Below are positions 6,314 to 7,138 of a stretch of 7,138 nucleotides of DNA, piece by piece. How positions within the stretch are numbered: the stretch's first letter is position 1; the number at the start of each line of letters is the position of its first letter. The translations under genes were made by a program, and so were the position numbers. Source of the stretch: a virus (Duplodnaviria; Heunggongvirae; Uroviricota; Caudoviricetes). The notes under the pieces were generated by a model that was not told the origin of the DNA, ran no database searches, and saw nothing but the letters and a program-made list of their open reading frames with translations. Location of the stretch: the IMG/VR virus record IMGVR_UViG_2711768034_000004. One strand, given 5' to 3'.

Positions 6314-6811
6314 CTACATCTGATATTTTTTATCTCTTAAAGATTCATAAATCCGTTGACAAGTCACTCCTGCGATGTAGCGTTTGTCAGCAATTTCAGC
6401 ATAAAGCTGAGCTTCTGCTGCAATATCTCCGAGCATGTTGGTGAGCATTCCTTCGGCGGCTTTGGTTGTTTTGCCTCTGACGGCAGCGGCAAGATTTGCG
6501 GTATGCTGCGCTGCGTCAAGGCGTATGGCATATTTTGTTGCTTCGGCACGCAGCTGGTTAACACTATCAGACAGATCAGCAGCCCTGGCAGAAATTTCAG
6601 CGGCTTTCTGTTGTGCATCTTTAACAGCCTCATCACGGGATATAGTTCGCCCCTGTTCAATTATTCGAGCAGCAAATTGGACATTTACCTCTTGAGATAA
6701 TTCGGCAGCATCACGCTCCGCCCATTTTTTTTGCCATCCTCTGTCGCTCCAGACATTACCTACGACAAATCCTACCAACACGAGCAAAATCACCGTGAAT
6801 ATCTGATTCAC
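6314..6811 (-). CDS. rzpQ: Rz-like i-spanin (165 aa), GTG start
   Basis: N-terminal TMD ([15 protein letters not shown]), helical periplasmic domain and C-terminal Cys give lambda Rz architecture. GTG at 6809-6811 is preceded by GGGGGA and overlaps the stop of the upstream gene remnant (GTGA). An embedded +1-frame lipoprotein ORF is present. Confidence 0.8.
6364..6618 (-). CDS. rzoQ: Rz1-like o-spanin lipoprotein (84 aa), fully embedded in rzpQ in a different frame
   Basis: [28 protein letters not shown]...: basic n-region, hydrophobic core, lipobox LTSC, then Pro-rich mature region ([17 protein letters not shown]), as expected for Rz1. The 84-aa length matches my recollection of RzoQ. The ORF-track version (98 aa) starts at an upstream ATG. 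Confidence 0.75.
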
Positions 6812-6841
6812 TGTTCTATCCCCCAGCAGGTTAATGCACTC
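6808..6841 (-). pseudogene. 3'-terminal remnant (about 10 codons) of an endolysin (R/Rrr-type lysozyme) gene truncated by IS3
   Basis: Minus-strand frame ending at TGA 6808-6810 (overlapping the rzpQ GTG) reads ...[10 protein letters not shown]-stop, resembling the recalled RrrD C-terminus ...EVCLWGQQ. Upstream, the frame runs straight into the IS3 terminus at 6842. Based on a short motif only. Confidence 0.35.
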
Positions 6842-7138
6842 TGATCTTACCCAGCAATAGTGGACACGCGGCTAAGTGAGTAAACTCTCAGTCAGAGGTG
6901 ACTCACATGACAAAAACAGTATCAACCAGTAAAAAACCCCGTAAACAGCATTCGCCTGAATTTCGCAGTGAAGCCCTGAAGCTTGCTGAACGCATCGGTG
7001 TTACTGCCGCAGCCCGTGAACTCAGCCTGTATGAATCACAACTCTACAACTGGCGCAGTAAACAGCAAAATCAGCAGACGTCTTCTGAACGTGAACTGGA
7101 GATGTCTACCGAGATTGCACGTCTCAAACGCCAGCTGG
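6842..7138 (+). mobile_element. IS3 insertion sequence, left-end portion (IRL plus start of orfA); continues past window end
   Basis: TGATCTTACCCAGCAATAGTGGACACGCGGCTAAGTGAGTAAACTCTCAGTCAGAGGTGACTCACATGACAAAAACAG... matches the recalled IS3 left terminus and insE start. Confidence 0.88.
6907..7138 (+). CDS. insE: IS3 transposase OrfA (InsE), N-terminal 77 codons; partial
   Basis: ATG at 6907-6909. Translation MTKTVSTSKKPRKQHSPEFRSEALKLAERIGVTAAARELSLYESQLYNWRSKQQNQQTSSERELEMSTEIARLKRQL matches recalled IS3 OrfA. Absent from the ORF track because there is no stop in the window. Confidence 0.85.
   Translation, partial: MTKTVSTSKKPRKQHSPEFRSEALKLAERIGVTAAARELSLYESQLYNWRSKQQNQQTSSERELEMSTEIARLKRQL

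Follow-up and report, generated by a model that had tools for sequence, protein, structure and literature searches.

The closest described counterpart of the locus analyzed here is the lysis cassette of the cryptic Qin prophage of Escherichia coli K-12, in which essQ, ydfR, rrrQ, and rzpQ/rzoQ are followed by cspI. A related arrangement, the phage 21 type cassette, combines a class II holin (pinholin), the SAR endolysin R21, and an Rz/Rz1 spanin pair.

Insertion sequence IS3, a 1,258-bp element of the IS3 family, creates a 3-bp target duplication and was reportedly treated as a mobile promoter in the original 1982 paper. The two IS3 promoters on record, P3L and the outward-facing P3R, point from left to right (PMC8860574). 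A two-strand reporter assay employed the 150-bp left and right IS3 ends for their lack of detectable promoter activity (PMC12095673). Cryptic prophages decay in textbook fashion through IS insertions into their genes, and the components concerned here, IS3, the Qin lysis genes, and embedded spanins, have all been described already. Here, we analyze an IS3 insertion in a Qin-like lysis cassette, starting from a window of 7,138 nucleotides, the whole stretch of DNA under study.

Results

Window and features of the insertion site

The window is the reverse complement of one complete draft contig, CXWS01000068.1 (7,138 bp; assembly GCA_001268745.1; also locus L010), with 297 bp of insertion sequence at each end: IS2 at 1-297 and IS3 at 6842-7138. 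Up to position 6842, it is collinear with the sister genome L004 (99.96% over 6,842 nt), the match ending at the IS3 boundary. The features of this region are as follows.

5693..6108, minus strand: cspI and its own leader, a cspA-type thermoregulator, downstream of the spanin genes (Rfam RF01766, 108.7 bits; gathering score, 78)
6314..6811, minus strand: rzpQ, inner-membrane spanin (Rz-like, DUF2514); GTG start, 165 aa, intact
6364..6618, minus strand: rzoQ, outer-membrane lipoprotein spanin (Rz1-like); 84 aa, out of frame within rzpQ, intact
6808..6841, minus strand: 3' remnant of the endolysin gene rrrQ; one base, 10 codons, and a TGA overlapping the rzpQ GTG
6819..6824, minus strand: Shine-Dalgarno-like GGGGGA, a putative ribosome-binding site 7 nt upstream of the rzpQ GTG, within the remnant and retained
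6839..6841, no strand: left copy of the 3-bp target-site duplication; CTC on the plus strand, GAG on the gene strand
6842..7138, plus strand: IS3 left end; terminal inverted repeat from 6842 (TGATCTTACCC...), the sequence ending with the draft contig

Spanin pair and rrrQ remnant

RzpQ matches the PHROG 312 Rz-like spanin family (E = 3e-58) and PF10721 (E = 1.9e-38) and displays, in its translation, an 18-residue hydrophobic stretch, a putative N-terminal transmembrane segment. Its gene is nucleotide-identical to that of L004, and the protein is ~90% identical to K-12 RzpQ. RzoQ possesses an L-T-S-C lipobox, matches the PHROG 11621 Rz-like spanin family (E = 2e-8), and shares 80 of 84 residues (95%) with K-12 RzoQ, annotated as 'putative lipoprotein'. 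The offset of rzoQ inside rzpQ is the same as that of rzoQ (b4689) in rzpQ (b1553) of K-12. Together, an inner-membrane and a lipoprotein subunit are consistent with a two-component embedded Rz/Rz1 architecture. The initial view that both spanin genes are intact holds. A literature search on rzpQ function found only a y-ome survey mentioning the gene.

From IS3 to rzpQ, the minus-strand sequence is G AGT GCA TTA ACC TGC TGG GGG ATA GAA CAG TGA. The remnant consists of the 30 nt between rzpQ and IS3 and base 6811, with the TGA of its frame overlapping the rzpQ GTG (GTGA). These are exactly the final 10 codons of the 177-aa lysozyme RrrQ encoded at the uninterrupted sister locus in L004, and the intact protein matches PF00959 (E = 2.6e-24) and PHROG 7 endolysin (E = 1.4e-62). 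Intact rrrQ and rzpQ are annotated with an identical 4-nt overlap in K-12 and other genomes. The anatomy proposed by the sequence-only reading, made from the letters of the window alone, holds on each of these points: ~10 codons are left between IS3 (from 6842) and rzpQ, the short remnant is the 3' end of an endolysin gene, as its identity to the L004 RrrQ C-terminus demonstrates, and the GTGA overlap is the ancestral rrrQ/rzpQ junction. The insertion breaks this stop/start overlap and adds 1,261 bp to the distance between the upstream lysis genes and rzpQ/rzoQ, which keep their own putative ribosome-binding site.

Identity of the insertion element

The terminus in the window begins with TGATCTTACCC. 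Strain H2 has a full-length IS3 (1,258 bp) whose start is identical at 297 of 297 nt to positions 6842-7138 (E = 6e-158), confirming the earlier naming of the element; 296 of 297 positions are identical to the copy in strain KKo009. Translation of orfA starts at 6907, 66 nt into IS3, and the orfA fragment matches HTH_Tnp_1 (E = 6e-10) and transpos_IS3. Regions matching this end carry the annotation 'IS3-like element IS3 family transposase'. Ten other IS3 copies in the Qin lysis cassette measure 1,258 bp each, most with a clean 3-bp duplication, and the transposase genes at the other IS3 loci are annotated 'programmed frameshift'.

Far junction and target duplication

Taken literally, the sequence-only reading would mean that IS3, by insertion or by an adjacent IS3-mediated deletion, removed the endolysin, the holin, and the late promoter and left an orphan spanin pair. 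Within the window, only IS3 is present beyond the 10-codon remnant, and strains 2018-05-5CC and CUVM53, which have no target duplication and carry unrelated defense genes across IS3, show that rearrangements linked to IS3 take place in this cassette. However, the window stops where the contig stops. The absence of rrrQ from this repeat-bounded draft contig is uninformative about the genome; the far side of IS3 is missing because the assembly broke inside the repeated element, not because DNA was lost.

We joined L004 rrrQ in silico to reverse-complement IS3 at the observed point, with target duplications of 0-6 bp, and looked up the products by exact sequence. The 3-bp prediction, a 178-aa protein composed of RrrQ residues 1-168 and DPTHVIWTQA, was found exactly as WP_053274312.1, encoded on only one contig: CXWS01000005.1 (170,116 bp), from the same assembly as the window (GCA_001268745.1). 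The 4-bp (168 aa) and 1-bp (167 aa) predictions are likewise in the database, mostly labeled 'partial', and are tentatively attributed to cut genes in other assemblies. The end of CXWS01000005.1 carries, in order, DUF968, the Q antiterminator, lipocalin, ybgA, an AraC-type HTH gene, a holin gene (71 aa, PF04971), ydfR (183 aa), rrrQ' (178 aa, PF00959), and the right end of IS3 (299 nt); Q is positioned ~4 kb upstream. These 299 nt are all identical to the KKo009 reference copy, and the two IS3 ends, bounded by TG...CA termini, align to each other as imperfect inverted repeats.

On the minus strand, the window junction reads ...GGGTAAGATCA / GAGTGCATT, the slash marking the boundary. On the same strand, the CXWS01000005.1 junction reads ...GACCAGGAGAG / TGATCCTACCC, also given as CAGGAGAG / TGATCCTACCC and, at greater length, as ...GACCAGGAGAG / TGATCCTACCCACG... 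GAG is present at both IS3 junctions, constituting a 3-bp direct target duplication; with one GAG left out, the joined flanks are identical to 400 bp of L004. CXWS01000005.1 is collinear with L004 (99.98% over 6,276 nt). Its overlap with the window contig on L004 amounts to exactly the three duplicated bases; the BLAST alignments to L004 overrun this point by 2 and 1 nt, since the initial IS3 bases coincide by chance with those of the target. Given the matching duplication and the collinearity with relatives, we infer that CXWS01000068.1 and CXWS01000005.1 are physically linked via one IS3 copy, of which 297 and 299 nt of the ends are present and the central 662 bp are unassembled in the source strain. 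The upstream late genes lie on a separate contig because the assembler could not cross the repeated element.

Beyond the far end of IS3, where the sequence-only reading had proposed to look, CXWS01000005.1 thus shows both an in-frame lysozyme gene and a target duplication of 3 bp. Deletion of the endolysin is rejected on this complementary rrrQ'-IS3 junction, present in the same assembly with a matching 3-bp duplication and preceded by intact holin, ydfR, and Q genes, and it is extremely improbable as an account of the locus. CXWS01000005.1 holds 168 of the 177 rrrQ codons next to the IS3 right end. The spanin pair is not orphaned, the holin gene, ydfR, rrrQ', and Q all being on that contig; its cassette is interrupted by 1,258 bp rather than deleted.

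The reading that we favor, with a probability of roughly 0.9, is a single simple transposition. One IS3 copy would have moved into the 3' end of rrrQ in a heavily decayed Qin-like cryptic prophage, duplicating GAG (3 bp, spanning rrrQ codons 167-168) and deleting nothing. Q, three cargo genes, the holin gene essQ, ydfR, and rrrQ' would then lie directly beyond the IS3 right end. A variant of this history adds later IS3-IS3 recombination, an inversion or translocation that now separates the spanins from the endolysin side and leaves the two junctions on different IS3 copies. A draft assembly is compatible with such a rearrangement, IS3 is present in several copies in E. coli genomes (a query that included non-IS sequence as well had a median of 4 matching places per genome), and IS-mediated inversions are well known; yet nothing requires the additional event, collinearity with close relatives extends across the site, and neither flank shows any other change, making it very unlikely.

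Altered C-terminus of the endolysin

RrrQ' keeps residues 1-168, including the whole Pfam lysozyme domain (residues 33-167; PF00959 score for RrrQ of 86.4 bits against a cut-off of 22.3). Residues E35, D44, and T50 of RrrQ align with the phage 21 lysozyme (3HDE/3HDF) and are all kept in the 178-aa product. RrrQ residues 169-177 (ALTCWGIEQ) are swapped for 10 IS3-encoded residues (DPTHVIWTQA). The lost tail included a C-x-W-G motif common to R21, leaving this strain with no intact C-terminal end; in the alignment to the phage 21 lysozyme chain (3HDE), the C-terminal RrrQ residues correspond to the final residues of that chain. With its altered C-terminus, RrrQ' is probably a weaker lysozyme.

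Transcription across IS3

Expression of the spanins would depend on transcription that reads through IS3 in the antisense direction relative to its transposase gene. Neither strand of IS3 contains a consensus intrinsic terminator. Rho-dependent polarity is likely, because the read-through transcript would include ~1.2 kb of untranslated RNA (no long open reading frame), unless the polymerase is Q-modified. Polymerase modified by Q, as in lambdoid antitermination, is resistant to termination of this kind, and under Q the spanins may still be transcribed despite IS3.

The end of IS3 adjoining rzpQ is the left end, with the transposase reading away from rzpQ. Because P3L and P3R point left to right and rzpQ adjoins the left end, these promoters cannot drive the spanins; as oriented at this locus, they would point antisense into rrrQ', away from the spanins. 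Scanning 6250-7138 yielded no sigma-70-like site on either strand and none facing rzpQ. The earlier proposal of an outward IS3 promoter driving the spanins is accordingly rejected on orientation (PMC8860574), reporter data for the IS3 ends (PMC12095673), and the empty scan. Its extension to the cspI-side genes fares no better, since cspI carries its own thermoregulator: the RF01766 match is full-length, spanning the cspI leader and coding region (ORF at 5739-5954). Having its own cspA-type cold-shock leader, cspI needs no IS3 promoter and nothing upstream of rzpQ.

Other IS3 insertions in the Qin lysis cassette

Of 5,426 complete E. coli genomes, a set outside which the draft GCA_001268745.1 lies, 2,151 carry the cspI-rzpQ segment. 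An IS3 left end in the window orientation occurs within ~1.1 kb of this segment in 17 genomes, and the opposite orientation, searched with a synthetic query, in 19, giving ~36 of 2,151 for both orientations together. The exact window junction is absent from the 5,426 complete genomes, the nearest being that of KKo009, 5 bp away; this IS3 allele appears to be private to the strain.

Twelve mapped loci place IS3 in the holin gene, the ydfR-rrrQ spacer, mid-rrrQ, the rrrQ 3' end, rzpQ (two sites), the cspI-rzpQ spacer, and ynfN. Most carry clean 3-bp duplications of unrelated sequence, and two have no duplication. Among the mapped sites, there is no common target sequence or single hot spot, and the orientations show no bias (17 versus 19 genomes). 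The scatter of sites and these counts lead us to reject orientation bias or a single hot spot as a strong effect.

Two independent same-orientation pairs are closely spaced: window 6842 and KKo009 (L001 6939), 5 bp apart, and UPEC-245U and 2018-05-5CC (L015 3247/L018 3245), 2 bp apart. Such pairs are weakly suggestive of a local target preference. As a rough estimate, 13 random insertions in 3 kb give a ~25% chance of one pair within 5 bp, with ~0.3 pairs expected.

These data bear on whether IS3 insertions are selected for disarming or re-wiring the lysis genes, through antisense transcription into rrrQ'/essQ or a hot spot at the rrrQ/rzpQ junction. Their occurrence near the cspI-rzpQ segment in 36 of 2,151 genomes, the two close pairs, and the antisense course of P3L/P3R into rrrQ' in the window orientation (PMC8860574) would fit such selection. 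Against it, the sites are scattered without a common target sequence or orientation bias, many of the 36 genomes appear clonal, a close pair is ~25% likely by chance on our rough estimate, and insertions in dispensable prophage DNA are expected to persist without selection; we give this account very little credence. It is likewise very unlikely that local IS3 target preference or selection operates in the Qin cassette, with P3L/P3R antisense transcription silencing rrrQ', ydfR, and essQ of a domesticated prophage.

In 2018-05-5CC and CUVM53 (L018, NZ_AP027886.1, 3245-5470; L025, NZ_CP116976.1, 3005-4801), IS3 lies in or next to rzpQ without a target duplication. The far side of IS3 encodes HEPN and DUF262 proteins in one and a retron Ec67-type reverse transcriptase in the other. 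At both loci, what remained of the lysis cassette has been replaced through a rearrangement mediated by IS3.

Decay of the prophage

By its gene content, the prophage is a heavily decayed Qin-like cryptic remnant that has lost essentially all head and tail genes. At 3184-3584, a 56-aa Lom/Ail fragment (3184-3354) has come to lie nearly adjacent to a terminase large-subunit fragment (3381-3584) through a deletion, where strain H2 and similar relatives keep full lom and a tail-tip J fragment between lom and terminase. The DUF1441 terminase-associated gene is truncated in the window. The IS2 at 1-297, 98.3% identical to an annotated IS2 copy in KKo009, cuts the tail-fiber gene, with a 945-aa open reading frame (282-3119, minus strand) taking its stop codon from inside IS2. 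This IS2 insertion is older than that of IS3, because the same IS2-tail-fiber junction is present in the sister genomes L004 and L005.

On the far side of IS3, lipocalin, ybgA-like, and AraC-type regulator genes occupy the interval from Q to the holin gene (L014 5921-8717; CXWS01000005.1). K-12 has cspF, cspB, and ynfU between Q and the holin gene; the late-leader cargo differs among Qin variants.

The lysis cassette no longer serves virion release. Because the prophage was already without head and tail genes, the IS3 insertion is most simply neutral decay.

Discussion

Taken together, this is an ordinary, recent IS3 insertion in the endolysin gene of a cryptic Qin-like prophage and a case of ordinary prophage decay. 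Its biological weight is small, and the lessons concern annotation. A gene that vanishes at an IS-made contig end is usually not deleted and can be recovered by predicting the fusion product and searching the same assembly. Claims of outward promoters require the orientation of the IS to be checked beforehand.

Comparison with known systems

Measured against reference IS3 (1,258 bp, IS3 family, 3-bp target duplication), the copy in this strain is alike in its ends (identical or nearly so), orfA offset, and duplication and is without unusual features, its central 662 bp being unassembled in the draft.

The nearest single insertion, in KKo009 (NZ_CP091673.1), affects the same gene in the same orientation 5 bp away and is fully assembled, with rrrQ, ydfR, and the holin gene directly across the IS. 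It is independent of the window insertion, differing in its duplication (ATG, not CTC), its fusion tail, its 174-aa product, and its Qin variant (98.9-99.1% identity).

With the phage 21 type cassette, the locus shares a PF04971 holin and an embedded spanin pair. RrrQ aligns to the R21 structures 3HDE/3HDF over residues 31-174 and has a hydrophobic, Ala/Leu-rich N-terminus. Unlike in the phage 21 cassette, RzpQ belongs to DUF2514, and an additional gene, ydfR, is inserted between holin and endolysin.

The closest likeness is to the K-12 Qin cassette (essQ-ydfR-rrrQ-rzpQ/rzoQ, then cspI), with the same gene order, 4-nt overlap, and rzoQ offset and protein identities of ~90% for RzpQ, 95% for RzoQ, and 93% for RrrQ. 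Unlike K-12 Qin, the prophage of the window strain carries IS3 after rrrQ codon 168, a different cargo between Q and the holin gene, the lom-terminase deletion, and an IS2-truncated tail-fiber gene.
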